A stretch of 13,984 nucleotides of DNA from a virus (taxonomy: Duplodnaviria > Heunggongvirae > Uroviricota > Caudoviricetes), in IMG/VR virus record IMGVR_UViG_2703718856_000007, positions 1-13,984 of that record; one strand, given 5' to 3'. Below, one piece after another: positions 2,835 to 10,428 of the stretch. The notes under the pieces were generated by a model, which was given only the letters and a program-made list of their open reading frames with translations, searched no databases and was not told the origin of the DNA. The position numbers and the translations under genes were made by a program. Position 1 is the first letter of the stretch, and every line of letters starts with the position of its first letter.

Positions 2835-5800
2835 TTATGCCTGAGTACGCAGCGCTTCAAGGCGGCGCAGGTCGAAGTCGTTCAGTTCGTCGGTGTAGTC
2901 AGCAGTGATTGGCGCTGGCCATTCACCTGTGTCGAATCCGGTTGCGATATTGCGCATCGCTTTGCGGTACTCGAGCATACCCAGCTCCAGTAGTTCAGCG
3001 GATGCCTCGATGATGGCGATCCAGTGGTAGTTCTCGTCTTTGTTGACGAAAATCCAGAAGAACTGATCCAGCGCTGCGGTTTCGCAGTACATAGCCGCGC
3101 TCAGGTGATAATCACGTTCAATAATTTCCCGGTGTAGCCTGGCGCGCAGGCTTTCCTGCTTAACATTCCACATGCTGATGGTTTTCAGGTCTGCACCTAT
3201 ACGCACGCCATCCAGGTCGATCTCAAGGTCAGGGCGCACACGAACTTCCAAGCCCGTCTCCTCGTCAAAACCAAAGTAGCTCACCTCAACGGCTCGGCTA
3301 GGGTGGGTCAGCAGCATGCCGGCGGTCGGGTGTGCCAGAAGCGCTTTTTGAATATTCAGCGCGGTGCTCAGCTGCTGGCGGGTGACCAGCACTTTTCCTT
3401 CCGGGTTATCGCGCCAGGCATCCAGCAGTTCGTCGGCAAATACGGCATCTGGTTTGACTGCCTTCACGGCCTGGATCATGTCTGCTTTGGTACCGGACAC
3501 TTTCAGTGGTGCCGGTTTCTGTGCTTCCTGAGCCACAAGGTCAGGGTTGATGATTGCCAACTGCTCCAGCAGCGCGTCACGGCTGCCGCTGGTTTTAACC
3601 GGCGGCGGCAGGGTGGCGTTGTACTCTTTAATGCATGCCTTCATTGCCGTCGCCGTCTGCTTCTGGTCACCATCAATACGCTGGAAGTCAGCTGGCAGCG
3701 CCATATAGTTCTGTGCCGTTTCTTCCAGGTTAGCGCCAAGCGGAACCTGCGGCGGCAGGGTGGCGTTGTACTCTTCCAGTAACACCTTGATGTTGTCGGC
3801 AGACAGCAGCGCCGGCAGGCTGGCATTGTGCTCATCGATAAAGGCGCGCAGGGTCGCGGCCGTTGTGAATGCGCCTTCAGGGATCACCGGTTCAACGCTG
3901 AATTCTGCGTCCAGTAGTTCAGGCTGCAACGCCAGCGCATGCACCAAGTTGCCCATGTCCAGCACCGCTGAGCGCTCTTTGACGATGGTTTTCTCTACGT
4001 GGCGCGCATTGAAGTACATCAGCGAAACGCGCGCATCTTTCACCTGGGTTGAGCTGATGCCGTTGGCGGCGTGGTAAACCTCGTTTGGCAGCCCTTCATA
4101 GCGGCCTGGCTCGAAATAAGCGGGATAAACAACAGCTGGTTCGTCAGATTGCGCTTCTGGCTCGGTTTGTGCTGCAACTGGTTCGGTTTGGCTTACAGAA
4201 TCGCTATTTTTGGCGACAGAATCCGTATTCTGGTCTACATCGTCCTTCTGGCTGGTATCTGACTCTTCACCAGACTCCAGACTGCTTTCGCCTGGCTGTA
4301 CTTCATCACCAGCTTGTTTTTCATCACTGACAGTTTCTTGAACCTGCACATTGCTGGTGGTCTCCGTAGCCTTTTTCGTGCCATGAGTTGCTGAGTTCTG
4401 CAGCAAAGCCGTAACGTCGAATATTCCGTTGCCGACATTTTTAACCAGTTCTTGTTCGACTTTCTGCGGTTGTGCTGCCGCTTCCTCTGCGCGGCGGCGT
4501 GCTCCTTCTTCACGCACGCGTTGCAGGTTCTCTTCGTGAGTGCAGAAGGATTTGCGCGGAGACTCCTTACCTTCAGGTTGGGGAATTTCCTGTGCTGCGG
4601 GTTCAGTCTCATGCAACGGCAATAACTCGACCGCGGAATTGAACGCGGCTGTCATGGTCTGGTTAACAAATTCCAGGTGAGCGACAGGAGTTAAATGAAT
4701 ATTTTCCGGTGCGATACGTACCAGGTTAAAAATAGCCGTGCGGTTAACACCCAGAACGCCTGGCTGATTGCGCAGGATGTTGCTCCATGATTTCCATGGT
4801 TCTTCTTTTTTGGTCACGATTTCTTTAGCGCGACGAAGAATGCTGCCCGGGATCTCGAAGTGGTTGAAGTCCATAGGCAGAAGGGCACACGCAATCTCTA
4901 AATCGAGAGTGTCCAGTGTGTGGTGTGCGTCAGGTCCACGGTCAGTGACGTAACCGCCGTCGGCATTAGTGCCGGAATCAGTACGCTGCACACTACTGAT
5001 GCGATTACCGGCGGCCCATTCGCGAACGAGGATACCGCGGTCGATGTGATCTGTAGCGAACCACAATTTCAAAAACTGGATTAAGGTTGCGAGTTCAGGG
5101 ATTTTTCCATCGACAGGGAAGACTTTCTTAACGGCATTCACGACTTTATGAATATCGTGCTCAATGGCTTTTTTGAATGCTTCCACATTCTCAGCTGCCA
5201 GCAGCAGGTTCTGGACGTACGCGTCATCGGTGTCCATCTCAAGGCGGACAATCTCATTTTTCTGCCCTGCGTCGATGTGATAGAGATATTCACCATCACC
5301 GATGAACTGAGCCAGTACGCGCTGGCGGAATGGCAGGGTGGCAACAACGATCAGGTTCGGTTGCTGTGTCTGCTGGGATTGCTCTTCGGTATCGACTTCA
5401 CCATCAACGACGCCACCTTCTGCCCGGCCGTTCTCGTCGGTCTGGATACCGTCCTCAACAGTGAGATCTTGACCCGTTGTAACGTCAGCAGCGTTGCTGG
5501 TTTCAGTTTTGAGCAACTGCAACTTACCACTGCGCCAGTCTTCTACCAGTTGATTGCGGTCACCGGCATCGGTGTTCACCCAGTCAGACATGAATGCAGC
5601 GATCAATCTTGGTTCGTGCTCTTCGTCTGGTGTGAAAATGTCCTTAACCGCCCGAATCATTTTCCACTCAGCATTCAGGCTGAGTTTGGCGGTCGCGGGC
5701 ACATCGTTCCTTGCCACAAGCAGGCTATGGAGATATGTATTGCCTTCATCCAGTGACATTTCGCTGGCAGCCAACTGCTGCTCTTTAGTGACGTGGGTTT

Positions 5801-6224
5801 GGTATTTATCGTTCATCAGATGGACGGCAAAGCGGACCGCTGGAGTACGGTTTTCAACCGGGACAATTTCGGACGCAGTCGCATCTTCAACGATTACGGT
5901 CGGAGTAGGTGTGTAGGGGGCGTCAACGGAACCAGTAGACACACCAGCGGCTTTTGGCAGCCAGGTGCGCCCATCGTCCTGAAGCTCGTAGCGATCACAC
6001 CAGGTAAAATCAACTTCACCTTCTTTCGGCAGGCCGTCGACAACTGGGAAATCAGTGCGAATCGGTTTGGCGTAGTCCTTACCCCGACCTGTTTCGATAC
6101 CTGCATCTTCCAGCGCAACATCCAGCATCAGATTGGCGCGAGCCTCGGTTTTAGCAGTGAACCAGACCACTGCATCTTGCTTTCCGGATTTCTGAGTGGC
6201 TTTAACCACATTAAAGAATTCCAT
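2835..6224 (-). CDS. recE: Exonuclease VIII (RecE-like), large 1129-aa form
   Basis: N-terminal DFPVVDGLPKEGEVDFTWCDRYEL and REWAAGNRISSVQRTDSGTNADGGYVTDRG closely parallel E. coli Rac RecE motifs (NFPVVNDLPAEGEIDFTW..., [30 protein letters not shown]) as recalled. C-terminal nuclease-like region ends ...GEWP. RBS GAGGAT upstream of the ATG at 6224. Confidence 0.85.
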   Translation of the reverse strand: MEFFNVVKATQKSGKQDAVVWFTAKTEARANLMLDVALEDAGIETGRGKDYAKPIRTDFPVVDGLPKEGEVDFTWCDRYELQDDGRTWLPKAAGVSTGSVDAPYTPTPTVIVEDATASEIVPVENRTPAVRFAVHLMNDKYQTHVTKEQQLAASEMSLDEGNTYLHSLLVARNDVPATAKLSLNAEWKMIRAVKDIFTPDEEHEPRLIAAFMSDWVNTDAGDRNQLVEDWRSGKLQLLKTETSNAADVTTGQDLTVEDGIQTDENGRAEGGVVDGEVDTEEQSQQTQQPNLIVVATLPFRQRVLAQFIGDGEYLYHIDAGQKNEIVRLEMDTDDAYVQNLLLAAENVEAFKKAIEHDIHKVVNAVKKVFPVDGKIPELATLIQFLKLWFATDHIDRGILVREWAAGNRISSVQRTDSGTNADGGYVTDRGPDAHHTLDTLDLEIACALLPMDFNHFEIPGSILRRAKEIVTKKEEPWKSWSNILRNQPGVLGVNRTAIFNLVRIAPENIHLTPVAHLEFVNQTMTAAFNSAVELLPLHETEPAAQEIPQPEGKESPRKSFCTHEENLQRVREEGARRRAEEAAAQPQKVEQELVKNVGNGIFDVTALLQNSATHGTKKATETTSNVQVQETVSDEKQAGDEVQPGESSLESGEESDTSQKDDVDQNTDSVAKNSDSVSQTEPVAAQTEPEAQSDEPAVVYPAYFEPGRYEGLPNEVYHAANGISSTQVKDARVSLMYFNARHVEKTIVKERSAVLDMGNLVHALALQPELLDAEFSVEPVIPEGAFTTAATLRAFIDEHNASLPALLSADNIKVLLEEYNATLPPQVPLGANLEETAQNYMALPADFQRIDGDQKQTATAMKACIKEYNATLPPPVKTSGSRDALLEQLAIINPDLVAQEAQKPAPLKVSGTKADMIQAVKAVKPDAVFADELLDAWRDNPEGKVLVTRQQLSTALNIQKALLAHPTAGMLLTHPSRAVEVSYFGFDEETGLEVRVRPDLEIDLDGVRIGADLKTISMWNVKQESLRARLHREIIERDYHLSAAMYCETAALDQFFWIFVNKDENYHWIAIIEASAELLELGMLEYRKAMRNIATGFDTGEWPAPITADYTDELNDFDLRRLEALRTQA
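3604..3837. repeat. Internal 147-bp-period direct repeats within recE
   Basis: 26-bp identical segments at ~3604-3629 and ~3751-3776 (cggcggcagggtggcgttgtactctt), plus a degenerate third copy at ~3811-3837. On the minus strand they encode three EYNATLPP/EHNASLPA motifs spaced 49 codons apart. Confidence 0.6.
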
Positions 6225-6743: not shown

Positions 6744-6924
6744 TGAACACCCCCGTGAAATGCATAATTTCGACAGCCAGGCCAGCCCAGAAAACCACAC
6801 CAATGGCCAGCGCGATAACCAGTGAGCGAATGCCGTTTCTGCTCATACCGCACCCCAGCACTGAACGCTTACGAATGCGACCAAAGCCAACAACAGAGCC
6901 ACCTTCACCTTGAATCTGTTCCAC
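6736..6924 (-). CDS. Hypothetical small membrane protein, first gene of the leftward operon
   Basis: 62-aa track ORF with a GTG start and GAGG about 7 nt upstream. Contains one hydrophobic segment (LVIALAIGVVFWAGLAVEI). An internal ATG at ~6846 would give a 36-aa version. Weak. Confidence 0.3.
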   Translation of the reverse strand: MEQIQGEGGSVVGFGRIRKRSVLGCGMSRNGIRSLVIALAIGVVFWAGLAVEIMHFTGVFNG

Positions 6925-7021
6925 GCAGGAACCTCATGTTCGCGGATCATCTCTTCACCTTTGCCTTATCGCGGCTAACGGGACGTTTTGACTTCACCCC
7001 GGCGTTGCCGGTGTTGTTTGG

Positions 7022-7110
7022 ATGAGATGATAATAGCAATGAGTATTAACCATAGCAATACGTATTGTTATTATTTGATAGCTATTGCTATTAAATCATT
7101 GATAGCTAAA
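7022..7110 (-). promoter_or_regulatory. OL/PL-like early-left promoter with repressor operator repeats
   Basis: AT-rich region with repeated TAGCAAT/ATTGCTA half-sites, including the perfect 12-bp palindrome CAATACGTATTG (~7054-7065). Minus-strand -35 TTGCTA (7053-7058), 17-bp spacer, -10 TATTAT (7030-7035). The same hexamers and operator motifs recur at the cI-cro intergenic region. Confidence 0.45.
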
Positions 7111-7170
7111 TGAATTTATTTTTTCCTATTGTGCTGTTATGCTCAAAAAAACGCCAAAAAGGGTAGCGCC

Positions 7171-7374
7171 ATGTCGAATGAGGATGAGTTTTTCGCAGAG
7201 ATGCACCCGCAGATTGCGCAGGTCATCGGGATAGCGGTTATGCAGCTGCTGGTTGAGAGGCGCGAGCCATCAAGAGAGGCGCTGATAGAGATGATTCAGG
7301 TGCTGTGGCAGGGTGACCAGGTAGATCTGGCAGTAGAGCTGGCACTGGATGTGCTGATGCTGAGGGAAGAGTAG
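7171..7374 (+). CDS. Small acidic hypothetical protein (67 aa)
   Basis: MSNEDEFFAEMHPQIAQVIGIAVMQLLVERREPSREALIEMIQVLWQGDQVDLAVELALDVLMLREE. GC-rich codon third positions typical of host-adapted coding sequence; AAGGG about 8 nt before the ATG. The track's TTG start at 7129 is less likely. Confidence 0.55.
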   Translation: MSNEDEFFAEMHPQIAQVIGIAVMQLLVERREPSREALIEMIQVLWQGDQVDLAVELALDVLMLREE

Positions 7375-7383
7375 GGCAGTAAC

Positions 7384-7405
7384 AACCCGGCGCGGTGGCC
7401 GGGTT
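7384..7405. terminator. Stem-loop between convergent genes (8-bp perfect stem AACCCGGC / GCCGGGTT, 6-nt loop)
   Basis: Seen directly in sequence. Lies between the stop of the 7171..7374 ORF (+) and the stop of the 7414..8331 ORF (-). No U-tract on either strand, so function as an intrinsic terminator is uncertain. Confidence 0.3.
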
Positions 7406-7413
7406 AACGTCTA

Positions 7414-8331
7414 CTACCAGTTCGGTAGCTCACGCAAAGAATACTTAGGCTTTCCATTACCTACCTGAGTGCAGAGGAATTTTGCAATAACTTTTTCTCC
7501 GCGGTGATCGTTGATAATGTCTGGATTGTCTATGTAATTACTGATTTTCGCTACAAAAATTGATTTAGATTCATCATGCTCCATAATAAACTCGCATTGA
7601 CGTTTATGAGGAAGAGCTCCCAAGAAGCTAACTTCTAATAACTGCAAATCTTCTTTAACACTATCTTTACTTAGCTTGAGGACCGCTCTTTCAATATCAT
7701 TGATATTGTTTGCAACAAGCGCTTGGTTGTTATGCCTTAAAGTAAAAGTTGCTTTGTTATCAAATAGTATTTGTATAAATCCACGTATTTTATCTAAAGC
7801 TCGGTCATCCAAATCACTAATCGCCTCAGCTAGACCATCATCGTCTCCCCTTATACTCATTTGCAGGATAGATTGAGTCTGGTTCAGAGCTTTTTGAACA
7901 GAAGATTCCTCATCAAAGTTAAGCGGGGCATCTGGCCTAAATTCCTCAAGTGTAAATCCAAAAGAACCTTTGGCTGTTCCAGTAATCATAAGCAAATTAT
8001 TTTCAAGATTTGGAATTTTACCTTTGGCCGGTAATTTCCCTGAAAATGAAGATGCAACATGAGAAACCGCATCATTAAAGGCGTTAACTATTTTGGTTCC
8101 GAAATTTGCAGCTATGCCATATGTACCAAGTACAGGGGCTCCTCTGAATGTTAAAGTGGCTTTAACTGGCGGATGCTCATCGATAACAATATGAGAAATC
8201 TCATCATTTAGCTCATGGAGCCTGCTTTCAAGGCTCATTTTGCCAATAATGTCATCATCAGTAGTGGTTTCTAAAAGAGACAGGATTGAGTCCCGCTCAC
8301 TTAGAACGAACAAGTAATCGTCGCGATTCAT
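7414..8331 (-). CDS. Hypothetical protein B of AT-rich cassette (305 aa), unknown family
   Basis: Long track ORF in a low-GC segment; start ATG overlaps the stop of upstream gene A by 4 nt (ATGA). Hydrophilic, no transmembrane segment, no Walker motif; no family recognised. Confidence 0.75.
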   Translation of the reverse strand: MNRDDYLFVLSERDSILSLLETTTDDDIIGKMSLESRLHELNDEISHIVIDEHPPVKATLTFRGAPVLGTYGIAANFGTKIVNAFNDAVSHVASSFSGKLPAKGKIPNLENNLLMITGTAKGSFGFTLEEFRPDAPLNFDEESSVQKALNQTQSILQMSIRGDDDGLAEAISDLDDRALDKIRGFIQILFDNKATFTLRHNNQALVANNINDIERAVLKLSKDSVKEDLQLLEVSFLGALPHKRQCEFIMEHDESKSIFVAKISNYIDNPDIINDHRGEKVIAKFLCTQVGNGKPKYSLRELPNW

Positions 8332-8915
8332 TGCTCACCTCCTTCTGATAGCATTGTTTCTAAAATGGTTAATGCCTGTTGATCCAGTGTAATATCTAGA
8401 GGAATCTGCAAGAATCCCTTCCATGTAAGATCCCTTCTATGAGACCACATACTGTACCAATATACAGTCCTTTCTACAAGCTGCTCCTTAGAAACGCCCA
8501 GTGACTGGAAGTAAGAATCAACTCTAAACTCTTGCTTTCTCCACTTACCCATATGTGGCACAAACAGATTCGGGTTACGCATAACGACATCTTGCTGCGT
8601 TTCGTTAAACGCCAAATTAAAAAAAGTCACAACATCAATGTCATTTGGCGGACGTTTTTCAATGAGTTCAACATCTTCTATGAAACTACCATCGATCCAT
8701 TGAAAACCATCCGTTAACCCAGTTTTATTAATTTCTTTACGAAATTTGATGAAACCGAGTAAGATCTCGATCCTTTGTGGGCTTGTAGCGTACCGCTCTA
8801 CAAATTTTAATATATCTGTCTTATATGGGGAGCGATAGGCGCTGGTTGGATGCTCCATATCCATTGGTGGGATTACACCAATTTCATTCCAGTTAGGAAT
8901 TTCCTGAATCACCAT
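8328..8915 (-). CDS. Hypothetical protein A of AT-rich cassette (195 aa), possible minimal nucleotidyltransferase-like motif
   Basis: Track ORF with AAGG about 8 nt before the ATG. Candidate own promoter on the minus strand: -35 TTGAAA (8963-8968), 17-bp spacer, -10 TACAAC (8940-8945). Motif WIDGSF-x14-DIDVV is reminiscent of the GS...DxD nucleotidyltransferase signature, though the spacing is atypical. Confidence 0.75.
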   Translation of the reverse strand: MVIQEIPNWNEIGVIPPMDMEHPTSAYRSPYKTDILKFVERYATSPQRIEILLGFIKFRKEINKTGLTDGFQWIDGSFIEDVELIEKRPPNDIDVVTFFNLAFNETQQDVVMRNPNLFVPHMGKWRKQEFRVDSYFQSLGVSKEQLVERTVYWYSMWSHRRDLTWKGFLQIPLDITLDQQALTILETMLSEGGEQ

Positions 8916-9187
8916 GCTGTGGCCTTAAATTTCTTATTGGTTGTAAGAAAAAATGTCATTATTTTCAATGGAGTCATTGATTTTTTTATCGCTTTATCAA
9001 TATGACTTCTCTCGCTCGCTTAATCAGAGCCTTTCTCTGAAATTTCATCAGGGATCGCATAAAATTATTGTTTGCCTCATTCACTGCGCGAGCGAAGCCT
9101 TTCCTTCATTTACTTCTCGTACATGTTATCTAGCCTTCCGCCTGAGTCGTAAATATACAATCATTCCCTGTTGTTTTAGGTGGCTTC

Positions 9188-9217
9188 TTATCCATGCTTC
9201 CTGTACGTCTTCGGCAT
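9188..9217 (-). repeat. Duplicated remnant of the cI 3' end (encodes MPKTYRKHG-stop)
   Basis: 9192-9217 matches 9395-9420 (the real cI terminus, MPQTYRKHG-stop) at 25 of 26 bp, with the stop codon conserved at the same offset; direct repeat 203 bp apart. Confidence 0.5.
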
Positions 9218-9248
9218 TACCAAAAACACATCGAACTACCGGTCTGGC

Positions 9249-9368
9249 TCACTCAAAGTCATCCCGCTCATCCTTCCGCTTGAAGAAAACTTTATCCAGC
9301 CTGAGCACTATCCCAACCAGTCCGATAATCAGCAAAGTAATGAGTATTGGGATAATCAGATCAGACAT
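9249..9368 (-). CDS. Small membrane peptide (39 aa), not in ORF track
   Basis: Manual translation: MSDLIIPILITLLIIGLVGIVLRLDKVFFKRKDERDDFE, an N-terminal hydrophobic helix followed by a charged tail. SD GAGGAAG just upstream of the ATG at 9368. An in-frame ATG at 9398 overlapping the cI stop would give 49 aa. Lies 23 bp downstream of cI, co-oriented. Confidence 0.4.
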   Translation of the reverse strand: MSDLIIPILITLLIIGLVGIVLRLDKVFFKRKDERDDFE

Positions 9369-9390
9369 GCTTCCTCTGCGTGCTAAGGCT

Positions 9391-10089
9391 TTACCCATGC
9401 TTCCTGTACGTCTGCGGCATGCTGCCGATCACCTTGCCGAACACGAAAACACGATTCATTTCGTCTTTCTCGATCGGGTCCCAGGCTGCATAGCTCTTGT
9501 TATCTGAGATAACCAGCAGCTTGTCCTTCATCTTCTGCAGGCGCTTGACGTGAGCAGTGTCGTCGTACAGGAAGGCGTATATCCCGTCGCCGTCGAAGCT
9601 CTTAACGCTGATGTCGACGAACAGCAGATCACCCGGCTCAATCGTGCCGGACATGCTGTCACCCCGGACGTTGATGATCCGGATGTTCTCAGCCTTACGC
9701 CCATCGAACATGTGCCGGGCTTCAGCTGGCTCATACTCAACAGAACGGAGAATCTCGACGAACTCCTGGTTCACGATGCCCGGCCCGGCACTAACCATAA
9801 GGTCCAGCACATCAATCCTGAATGCATCAGTATCCTGGCTTTTAACCTGGGCAGCGCGAGGGAGCTGGCCGTCATCGCGCATCGGTCCATTTCCGGTTGA
9901 TAACCATTCAGACCTGACGCCCAAAGCATTAGCTATCTCGACAATTTTTGTTGAACCCCTGGCGTTTCCACTCACCAGGCGCCAAATGGTTGGCTGAGCA
10001 ATACCTGAGGCCTTCGCAAGCGCCCCTTGTGACATTCCAGCCGAAGCCATGGCCTCGTTTAAACGATCTGCAAGAGTTTCTTTTTTCAT
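9391..10089 (-). CDS. cI: Phage repressor cI-like (HTH plus S24 LexA-type peptidase domain)
   Basis: N-terminal HTH (MSQGALAKASGIAQPTIWRLVSGN); C-terminal S24 autoprotease motifs (GDSM serine, HVKRL lysine; Ala-Gly site in MVSAGPG). Start taken at ATG 10089 (MKKETLADR...), with the candidate PRM -10 immediately upstream, i.e. near-leaderless like lambda cI; the track's 10152 start would overlap the operators. Confidence 0.9.
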   Translation of the reverse strand: MKKETLADRLNEAMASAGMSQGALAKASGIAQPTIWRLVSGNARGSTKIVEIANALGVRSEWLSTGNGPMRDDGQLPRAAQVKSQDTDAFRIDVLDLMVSAGPGIVNQEFVEILRSVEYEPAEARHMFDGRKAENIRIINVRGDSMSGTIEPGDLLFVDISVKSFDGDGIYAFLYDDTAHVKRLQKMKDKLLVISDNKSYAAWDPIEKDEMNRVFVFGKVIGSMPQTYRKHG

Positions 10090-10094
10090 AATCT

Positions 10095-10170
10095 CAAATT
10101 TATACGCTTGCGTATTACTGGTCAAAACACGTTTTGCTATTGCTAAAACCAATACGCATTGCTATTATCA
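10095..10170. promoter_or_regulatory. OR-like divergent promoter/operator region (PRM leftward, PR rightward)
   Basis: PR candidate on plus strand: -35 TTGCTA (10140-10145), 17-bp spacer, -10 TATTAT (10163-10168). PRM candidate on minus strand: -35 TTGACC (10120-10125), -10 TATAAA (10099-10104). Inverted repeats TACGCttGCGTA and CAATACGCATTGCTATT share half-sites with the 7022-7110 region. Confidence 0.5.
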
Positions 10171-10200
10171 TTTTGCACCAATACTTATAGGAATTGGAAC

Positions 10201-10428
10201 ATGACGAACAAAACCATCCAGAAGGCAATTGATATCGCTGGCAGTCAGAAAAAATTGGCCGATCTGTGTGGCGTAGCGCAGCCGACAGTTTGGCGCTGGC
10301 TGCATGGCGGCGGAATTGACGCTCGCTATGTAATGAAAATCGTGTCTGCGACCAACGGCAAGATTAAGGCGGCAGAGATCAGGCCTGACCTTGCTCAGTT
10401 GCTGAGCGCGCATTCACCGGCCGCCTAA
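10201..10428 (+). CDS. cro: Cro-like HTH transcriptional regulator
   Basis: Small ORF divergent from cI with HTH QKKLADLCGVAQPTVWRW. Start taken at ATG 10201 with AGGA about 9 nt upstream; the track's 10159 start lies inside the promoter. Confidence 0.75.
   Translation: MTNKTIQKAIDIAGSQKKLADLCGVAQPTVWRWLHGGGIDARYVMKIVSATNGKIKAAEIRPDLAQLLSAHSPAA

Follow-up and report, generated by a model that had tools for sequence, protein, structure and literature searches.

A conserved small gene flanks the cargo slot of prophage immunity regions and encodes an acidic protein with a predicted AriR/YmgB-like fold

YmgB and, less strongly, YmgA activate the Rcs phosphorelay, with colanic acid going up and curli going down (PMC3509220). 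Independently of Rcs, YmgB (AriR) also binds SpoT and raises ppGpp, and most loss-of-binding mutations in AriR/YmgB, including R74G, lie in helix 3 (PMC10704370). YcgZ, a substrate of Lon, lowers ompF transcription (PMC5491885). In prophages, genes that have their own promoter and run antisense to lytic genes are typical accessory loci and are transcribed in lysogens (PMC7067206).

The literature searched holds no mention of the phage protein family PHROG_3946, nor of a phage-borne AriR/YmgB-like protein. Here we describe a PHROG_3946 gene whose product is predicted to adopt such a fold. AriR is encoded in the BluR/BluF-controlled ycgZ–ymgABC operon, whereas the PHROG_3946 gene is phage-borne and has a promoter-like motif of its own. 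The window, that is, the whole stretch of 13,984 nucleotides that was analysed, is the early and immunity region of a Klebsiella-type lambdoid prophage, and its features are as follows.

1711–2829, − strand: RecT.
2835–6224, − strand: RecE-like exonuclease of 1129 aa.
7030–7108: OL-like operator cluster with a leftward PL-like promoter; left boundary, outside the unit.
7115–7120, + strand: weak −35-like hexamer TTTATT in a T-rich tract, agreeing with the consensus at 3 of 6 positions and lying 17 bp before the −10 hexamer.
7135–7143, + strand: extended −10 promoter-like motif TGtTATGCT (hexamer 7138–7143), with a predicted transcript start near 7150.
7159–7163, + strand: Shine–Dalgarno-like AAGGG, 7 nt upstream of the ATG, within an A-rich leader predicted to be unstructured.
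7171–7374, + strand: gene for a 67-aa acidic three-helix protein of PHROG_3946, with a predicted AriR/YmgB-like fold.
7384–7405, both strands: GC-rich hairpin AACCCGGC-GCGGTG-GCCGGGTT, with an 8-bp stem, between the convergent genes.
7414–8915, − strand: convergent low-GC two-gene cargo in the rexAB position downstream of cI; right boundary of the unit.
9391–10152 as listed, from an upstream TTG: S24-peptidase/HTH repressor (cI).
Right of the repressor, + strand: Cro-like YdaS-type protein, CII and replication genes.

At the left boundary, a promoter scan places the leftward PL-like promoter at −35 TTGCTA (7058–7053) and −10 TATTAT (7035–7030). Operator-like repeats (ATAGCAATnnGTATT...) lie at 7033–7049, 7052–7068 and 7078–7094, and copies of TTGATAGCTA at 7075–7084 and 7099–7108. 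The operator words of 7033–7108 recur in the cI–cro intergenic region (10123–10195) as one operator type, ATAGCAATnnGTATTG.... We placed the start of the repressor at ATG 10089, which agrees with a 699-nt gene annotated in E. coli W21. At the right boundary, the cargo encodes a 305-aa protein (PHROG_18731) and a 195-aa DUF6932 protein (PADLOC candidate PDC-M63A), with a GC content of 0.39–0.40 as against 0.54 in the backbone.

The gene runs on the + strand from ATG 7171 to the TAG at 7372–7374 and encodes 67 residues (MSNEDEFFAEMHPQ...LMLREE), just as a first-pass annotation of the bare sequence had it. That annotation had estimated about 15 Asp/Glu against about 4 Arg/Lys; counting gives 14 and 4, a pI of 4.18 and a net charge of −10.4. 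It had also put the gene about 60 bp from the OL-like operators on the strand opposite PL, and indeed the start is 63 bp from the last operator-like repeat, with the gene pointing away from PL. The hairpin at 7384–7405 follows 9 nt after the stop; it had been described as a stem-loop common to the convergent cassette and does lie between both genes, the convergent 305-aa cargo gene ending at 7414. In composition (GC 0.55, GC3 0.69), the gene resembles the phage backbone, for which the corresponding values are 0.54 and 0.64 in cI and 0.54 and 0.58 in RecT/RecE. A longer frame of 81 aa from TTG 7129 was rejected: the start codons of homologues align with ATG 7171 (GTG or ATG in Salmonella copies), and the sequence upstream is promoter-like and non-coding.

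Could the frame be a chance ORF or a gene-caller artefact? The window holds 105 ORFs of at least 40 aa, so that an ORF of 67 aa is, by size alone, within chance; Pfam and NCBIfam have no match to the protein, and phages epsilon34 and ST104 carry the gene un-annotated. It is because of its conservation, not its size, that the ORF stands beyond chance. The protein matches PHROG_3946, a phage family of no assigned function, over its full length (residues 1–67 on profile positions 1–67 of 67; E = 2e-39, 134 bits), and it is represented by 526 database clusters. An exhaustive search of 1.8 billion representatives yielded a narrow family in which length and frame are kept down to 30–40% identity. 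Between Klebsiella-type and Salmonella-type copies, dN/dS is 0.09–0.15 (dS 1.2–2.3, dN 0.17–0.21), and the differences fall 16, 8 and 31 times on codon positions 1, 2 and 3. Klebsiella, Salmonella, Cedecea and metagenomic relatives all keep frame, length and start position, and the fold prediction is confident. The substitution pattern already excludes an artefact, and we regard the probability of a chance ORF as negligible. The check on conservation and synteny that the first-pass annotation had proposed came out in favour of the gene, with the full-length family match, a dN/dS of about 0.1 at dS above 1 and a reading frame kept across homologues. We conclude that the ORF is a genuine gene, conserved among prophages.

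The anatomy of the unit was derived from an alignment of the window with Klebsiella phages RAH1 and ST101-KPC2phi6.1, E. coli W21, Salmonella phages SPN9CC, ST104 and S107 and a metagenomic prophage, phages whose operators are unrelated. The block common to the aligned copies begins about 60 nt 5′ of the start codon. A '(G/A)TTTATTTTT' tract is kept in the Klebsiella, Salmonella and metagenomic immunity-region copies despite their unrelated operators. Downstream of this, about 85 of 94 loci have the sequence TGn(T/C/G)A(T/A)(G/A)CT 35–40 nt upstream of the start codon, the variants of the extended −10 including TGGTAAGCT, TGTTATGCT, TGAGATACT and TGCCATACT. The site at 7135–7143 was not called in a generic consensus promoter scan of the window. 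In all five immunity types examined, the words shared with OR end upstream of the −35 and do not overlap the promoter-like motif, which thus adjoins the operators rather than lying under them. At the Shine–Dalgarno position, homologues have GAGGG or GAGGAA, and the leader and start region (7144–7200) folds worse than its shuffles (z = +1.66). A terminator-like call on the − strand at 7170–7150 was discarded, since it folds like shuffled sequence (z = −0.15) and is not kept in the Salmonella copies.

The hairpin at 7384–7405 has a predicted folding energy of −19.5 kcal/mol on the + strand (matched by 3 of 200 shuffles) and of −19.3 kcal/mol on the − strand (matched by none of 200). Among homologous loci the stem is kept and the loop varies, and in most contexts a hairpin lies 3′ of the stop. 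The T-run is clearer on the − strand, that of the cI operon, in several immunity-region copies (L002, L004); it lies on the gene's own + strand, as in a classical terminator, in L008, L014, L018 and L020; and in the window neither strand has a good one (TTAACGT and TTGTTAC). The hairpin is likely to be a terminator or 3′ stabiliser for both convergent genes. An Rfam scan of 6800–7600 returned only one sub-threshold chance match. These sequence features give the gene a putative promoter and a putative terminator of its own.

We then looked at where the gene occurs. It is present in 42 of 50,697 phage records and, in the immunity-region position, in 57 of 5426 complete E. coli genomes. Most commonly it lies on the opposite strand, with N or PL on one side and the cI operon on the other, an arrangement seen in Klebsiella phages and prophages, in E. 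coli and in the Salmonella P22-like phages ST104, epsilon34, SPN9CC and g341c; the records of epsilon34 and ST104 contain the gene un-annotated, and the epsilon34 genome paper leaves the ORF without annotation. Many Klebsiella phages have the PL-side flank in common and lack the ORF. The gene had been taken for an extra element that lambda lacks at this place, a view borne out by its variable presence among related phages and by its own promoter-like motif and hairpin.

Modularity was assessed in 94 loci with an ORF at least 92% identical. These contain about 15 operator-segment types and about 45 downstream cargo types in 66 combinations. The sampled cargo includes RexAB, PDC-M63A/B, PDC-M66A/B (HipA-like and DUF3037), PDC-M24B, ParA-like ATPases and, in ST104, a gene annotated in the record as similar to a phage 933W gene; in the L008 prophage, there is no cargo and the gene is immediately adjacent to cI. 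Because the ORF stays constant across these operator and cargo types, it is not linked to any single repressor or defence system. A role as cassette-specific antitoxin or immunity protein was rejected, given some 45 cargo versions and the direct abutment on cI. Distant members lie at prophage ends, after tail-fibre and tail-fibre-assembly genes and near DinI, PLD-like and BssS-like genes. One member, in the Cedecea davisae chromosome, is downstream of icd and beside a GGDEF gene, with a DUF2767 gene two genes away; a genome scan with this member as query gave matches in Cedecea davisae only. Like a moron, then, the gene is variably present and occupies different accessory positions (immunity region, prophage ends and chromosome). 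Together, these results show that the PHROG_3946 gene is a constant flank of a hypervariable cargo slot and behaves as a mobile accessory gene, not as part of one repressor circuit or defence system.

Structure prediction, which the first-pass annotation had also proposed, gave a confident AlphaFold2 (AF2) model from a 15-sequence alignment (pLDDT 87, pTM 0.74), with predicted helices at residues 3–28, 35–45 and 53–63. The best structural match of this model is AriR/YmgB (2OXL), a signalling connector that is itself acidic, and the model reproduces the three-helix fold of the YmgB crystal structure. YmgB itself crystallises as a dimer. For a lower-quality single-sequence model, Foldseek against the PDB ranked 2oxl_A eighth (E = 2.7) and returned nothing significant, and the AF2 model found nothing significant among the viral structures of BFVD. 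Three-helix bundles are a common fold, which limits the weight of the likeness to AriR.

Scans of the 67-aa protein against Pfam, NCBIfam and PADLOC gave no match. The PF10798 (YmgB) model matched neither the window protein (E up to 1) nor any of 15 diverse members (E up to 10), and the same model scores K-12 AriR at 90 bits and YcgZ at 25 bits; with 0 of 15 members matching, we do not file the protein under PF10798. A Pfam scan of the 15 members produced scattered sub-threshold matches only, one of them to PF10965 at E = 0.032. The family profile found nothing among all PDB sequences at E up to 10, and tblastn of K-12 AriR and YcgZ found nothing in the 50,697 phage records. In a directed hmmsearch, the family profile scored YcgZ at 10.0, YmgA at 9.7, the Cedecea DUF2767 protein at 8.2 and AriR at 4.1 bits. 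All of these matches fall in one register, comprising the helix-1 'hhGxAV', a short loop and the start of helix 2, and the controls (YmgC and two unrelated neighbours) scored negative. Composition-matched shuffles reached the respective scores 0, 1, 2 and 27 times in 2000. An hhalign comparison of the family with an AriR-family alignment returned the same register, at E = 0.02 but a probability of 2.3%. The argument for homology to AriR thus combines a structure predicted from a shallow alignment of 15 sequences with weak directed sequence scores, and it supports the view that the protein may be a distant phage-borne relative, or a structural analogue, of the YcgZ/YmgA/AriR group.

The family alignment also shows how the members differ from that group. 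The N-terminal segment EDEFF is conserved, and helix 3 reads as an acidic DLAVELAxDVL with no conserved Arg or Lys in any register. Eight positions (E4, E29, E32, E36, E40, D52, E56 and D60) are acidic in at least 11 of the 15 sequences, and most phage members have a net charge of −8 to −11, two others being P0150 (−1.5) and P0170 (−4.2).

On this evidence we propose, with a probability of roughly one half, that the locus is an accessory gene of the moron type, whose small product binds a host regulator. Carried by lambdoid and P22-like prophages of Klebsiella, E. coli and Salmonella, it would form its own small transcription unit (T-rich −35, extended −10, short leader, Shine–Dalgarno sequence, 67 codons and hairpin), with OL/PL on one side and the terminator end of the cI–cargo operon on the other. 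The anatomy of this unit, its independence from immunity type and cargo and the match of the predicted fold come directly from the analysis above. Promoter activity and expression in the lysogen are our working assumption, made from the promoter-like motif outside the operators and the antisense layout (PMC7067206). The product would be a three-helix acidic protein without enzymatic activity that binds a conserved host regulatory protein. That it acts by protein binding we infer by analogy with the predicted relatives. The ORF does not co-vary with repressor or cargo and is kept across Klebsiella, Escherichia, Salmonella and beyond, which makes a conserved host protein a more likely partner than a phage one. 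Such binding would most plausibly change envelope or stress physiology, that is, capsule or colanic acid, porins or ppGpp, and the roles of the relatives suggest the Rcs phosphorelay, SpoT (ppGpp) and porin control as candidate targets, although the host pathway affected is a matter of speculation. Since helix 3 has no conserved basic residue, contact with the partner probably differs from the contact of AriR with SpoT, and the function of AriR is not directly transferable.

The main competing readings concern what the acidic surface, the position and the DNA block itself might do. Ocr and Arn are small acidic phage DNA mimics, and the 67-aa protein can be set beside them by description only, being small and strongly negative. 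If it were such a mimic, its surface would imitate DNA and, soon after infection or induction begins, block a restriction, defence or DNA-binding protein of the host. Its pI of 4.18 and charge of −10.4, the similar charge of most phage members with their eight acidic columns and the place of this small phage-borne gene next to a defence-cargo hotspot all fit. However, some members are nearly neutral, the libraries searched gave no sequence or fold match to a known DNA-mimic or anti-restriction family, and the best match of the predicted structure is a signalling connector that is acidic as well. Moreover, the operators do not overlap the promoter-like motif, and members occur in a bacterial chromosome and in accessory positions at prophage ends. 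The suggestion of a DNA mimic or anti-defence factor in the first-pass annotation accordingly found no support, the gene being independent of cargo (about 45 types, and none in L008) and also present outside immunity regions, and we consider it distinctly unlikely; by analogy with its predicted relatives, the protein would more likely adjust the activity of a host regulator than imitate DNA. The 'regulatory factor' that the same annotation had offered as another option is the one towards which the results lean.

A role in the lysis–lysogeny decision, with the protein acting on CI, Cro, N or RecA-mediated induction or convergent transcription modulating the cI–cargo operon, would explain the constant place beside OL, most loci having the gene on the opposite strand and flanked by OL/PL and by the cI operon. 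In several immunity types the operator-like words end only a few nucleotides before the −35, which could allow repressor-dependent control. Yet the identity of the ORF stays at or above 92% among about 15 operator types whose repressors are unrelated, so that it shows no co-variation with immunity type, the hairpin separates it from the convergent operon, and the gene also occurs far from immunity regions and in a chromosome; we think this role unlikely. A mainly cis-acting function is less probable again, and indeed very unlikely: the block would serve as a recombination or insulation flank that delimits the cargo slot and ends the immunity transcript, the protein being minor. It does border a slot with some 45 cargo types, loci cease to resemble one another about 60 nt before the start and about 30 nt beyond the stop, and the T-run of the hairpin is, at several loci, on the strand of the cI operon. 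Against this, purifying selection acts on the amino acids (dN/dS about 0.1, with third-position changes dominating), and the protein is kept to 30–40% identity where no cargo slot exists. A cis role may coexist with a protein function but cannot by itself explain the purifying selection.

A more specific version of the host-regulator reading, which we hold to be a long shot, is that the gene encodes a phage-adapted AriR/YcgZ-like connector, made in lysogens from the operator-adjacent promoter, that switches on a host envelope or stress programme as a general, receptor-level barrier to superinfection. Such a programme could be Rcs-driven capsule, porin shut-down or ppGpp, and it would work alongside whichever defence cassette fills the adjacent hotspot. 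If so, the connector class would gain its first member from a phage, and prophage carriage would be linked directly to capsule or stress signalling in Klebsiella, E. coli and Salmonella. If the protein is a version of YcgZ/YmgA/AriR, prophages would tap directly into Rcs, stringent-response or porin control, and in Klebsiella this would bear on capsule, phage susceptibility and virulence.

The gene is annotated as 'hypothetical' everywhere and was missed in epsilon34 and ST104, yet few features of the immunity region are more constant across many prophages of Klebsiella, E. coli and Salmonella. The block of promoter-like motif, ORF and hairpin brackets, together with cI, a hypervariable slot with many candidate defence systems and can thus serve as an anchor for mining new ones. 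We infer a connector function from the predicted structure and weak sequence signals. On that basis, the family would be a phage-adapted, more acidic and N-terminally different branch of the small connector fold that forms the fixed flank of a defence-cargo hotspot, and the connector family, itself poorly understood, would gain a second branch open to experiment.

Set against known systems, the 67-aa protein resembles the two-component-system connector AriR/YmgB (2OXL; PF10798) in being small, acidic and, as predicted, all-helical, and hhalign and hmmsearch align the family with it in the same register, from the helix-1 hhGxAV through a short loop to an S/N-x-x-hh start of helix 2. The two differ in that identity is about 12–19% and the Pfam model has no match, and in that AriR has an N-terminal extension of about 25 residues where the PHROG_3946 family has its EDEFF start. 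R74 of AriR is needed for SpoT binding (PMC10704370), whereas helix 3 of PHROG_3946 is acidic and has no conserved Arg/Lys. The bluR–bluF–ycgZ–ymgAB setting is absent from the window, a prophage immunity region, and neither bluR nor bluF was seen near the Cedecea member. YcgZ and YmgA, regulators without known enzymatic activity (PMC5491885, PMC3509220), are of similar size, helical and give the best directed profile scores; their match is limited to helix 1 and the start of helix 2, and YcgZ is near neutral and YmgA basic. The unit also recalls phage morons, which are promoter–gene–terminator units antisense to neighbouring operons and variable in presence (PMC7067206, PMC2629481).

The likeness to DUF2767 (PF10965) is a weak sequence link (E = 0.032 for one member, 8.2 bits for the Cedecea neighbour), from a comparison by sequence alone. 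The remaining parallel is with the rexAB/tImm region of lambda. In lambda, the cI–rex transcript ends at a terminator, and no gene lies between that terminator and OL. The hairpin at 7384–7405 holds the position of that terminator; here, by contrast with lambda, a conserved small gene forms the fixed border of the variable cargo slot.

The slot bounded by cI and the hairpin that follows the 67-aa acidic-protein gene is a hypervariable cargo hotspot, corresponding to positions 7414–8915 in the window and to the equivalent segment in L021–L100, loci that carry members of the protein family. Among 94 loci with a near-identical copy of the gene, about 45 different types of downstream sequence were found. 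The cargo sampled between the hairpin and cI, in which PDC-M names denote PADLOC candidate defence families, was as follows:

PDC-M63A/B
PDC-M66A/B (HipA-like and DUF3037)
PDC-M24B
a ParA-like AAA_31 protein
RexAB
a gene similar to a phage 933W gene, according to the annotation of the ST104 record

The GC content of the window's cargo was 0.39–0.40, compared with 0.54 for the backbone. PADLOC scanning returned no match for the 305-aa protein of this cargo; its positional counterpart at locus L039, 310 aa in length, matched PDC-M63B at 4e-47. The 475 bp that separate the cargo from the cI stop codon (8916–9390) gave no family match, and the sole long ORF in them, 8953–9507 (+), is probably spurious, overlapping cI by approximately 117 nt. 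The corresponding gap in E. coli W21 likewise lacks annotation. This interval could provide room for a cargo promoter or an RNA.

The operator words ATAGCAAT..GTATTG are common to the window (7033–7108 and 10123–10195) and Salmonella phage ST104, in which they lie upstream of the ORF, as is the segment TTGATAGC(A/T)AAATGAATTTAT adjoining the −35 element of the ORF. These shared features point to the same immunity type in the Klebsiella-type phage of the window and the P22-like ST104. Positions 6939–7037, which comprise the PL leader and the 5′ end of the first leftward gene, are 97–100% conserved in many Klebsiella phages that have neither the window's operators nor the 67-aa ORF, which argues that the operator segment is itself a swappable module flanked by two conserved stretches. 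Further to the left, the RecE-like protein (2835–6224, −) is unusually long (1,129 aa); it matches Exonuc_VIII at its N terminus and carries a PDDEXK-like DUF3799 domain at its C terminus. The protein in the Cro position (10201–10428, +) is of the YdaS type (PF15943) and differs in this from lambda Cro.

A second typical accessory-gene position for the family is the prophage end behind the tail-fibre genes: distant members (L011–L013, L016 and L018–L019) lie there after tail-fibre and Caudo_TAP genes, next to DinI, PLD-like, ORF6N and BssS-like genes.

In Salmonella-type copies (L004 and ST104, likewise L006 and L008), a −10 region reading TGcCATACT or TGcGATACT precedes the ORF by about 40 nt and presumably resembles the sigma-S-type extended −10 consensus. 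The ycgZ operon of E. coli is sigma-S dependent (PMC3509220). On the chromosome of Cedecea davisae DSM 4568 (L014 2523–5048; L101), a homologue with 40% identity is located downstream of icd and clusters with genes for GGDEF and DUF7661 proteins, for a protein of 89 aa and for a DUF2767 protein of 71 aa. The DUF2767 protein, too, matches the family profile. This setting downstream of icd loosely recalls the icd–e14–bluRF–ycgZ–ymgAB neighbourhood of E. coli K-12.
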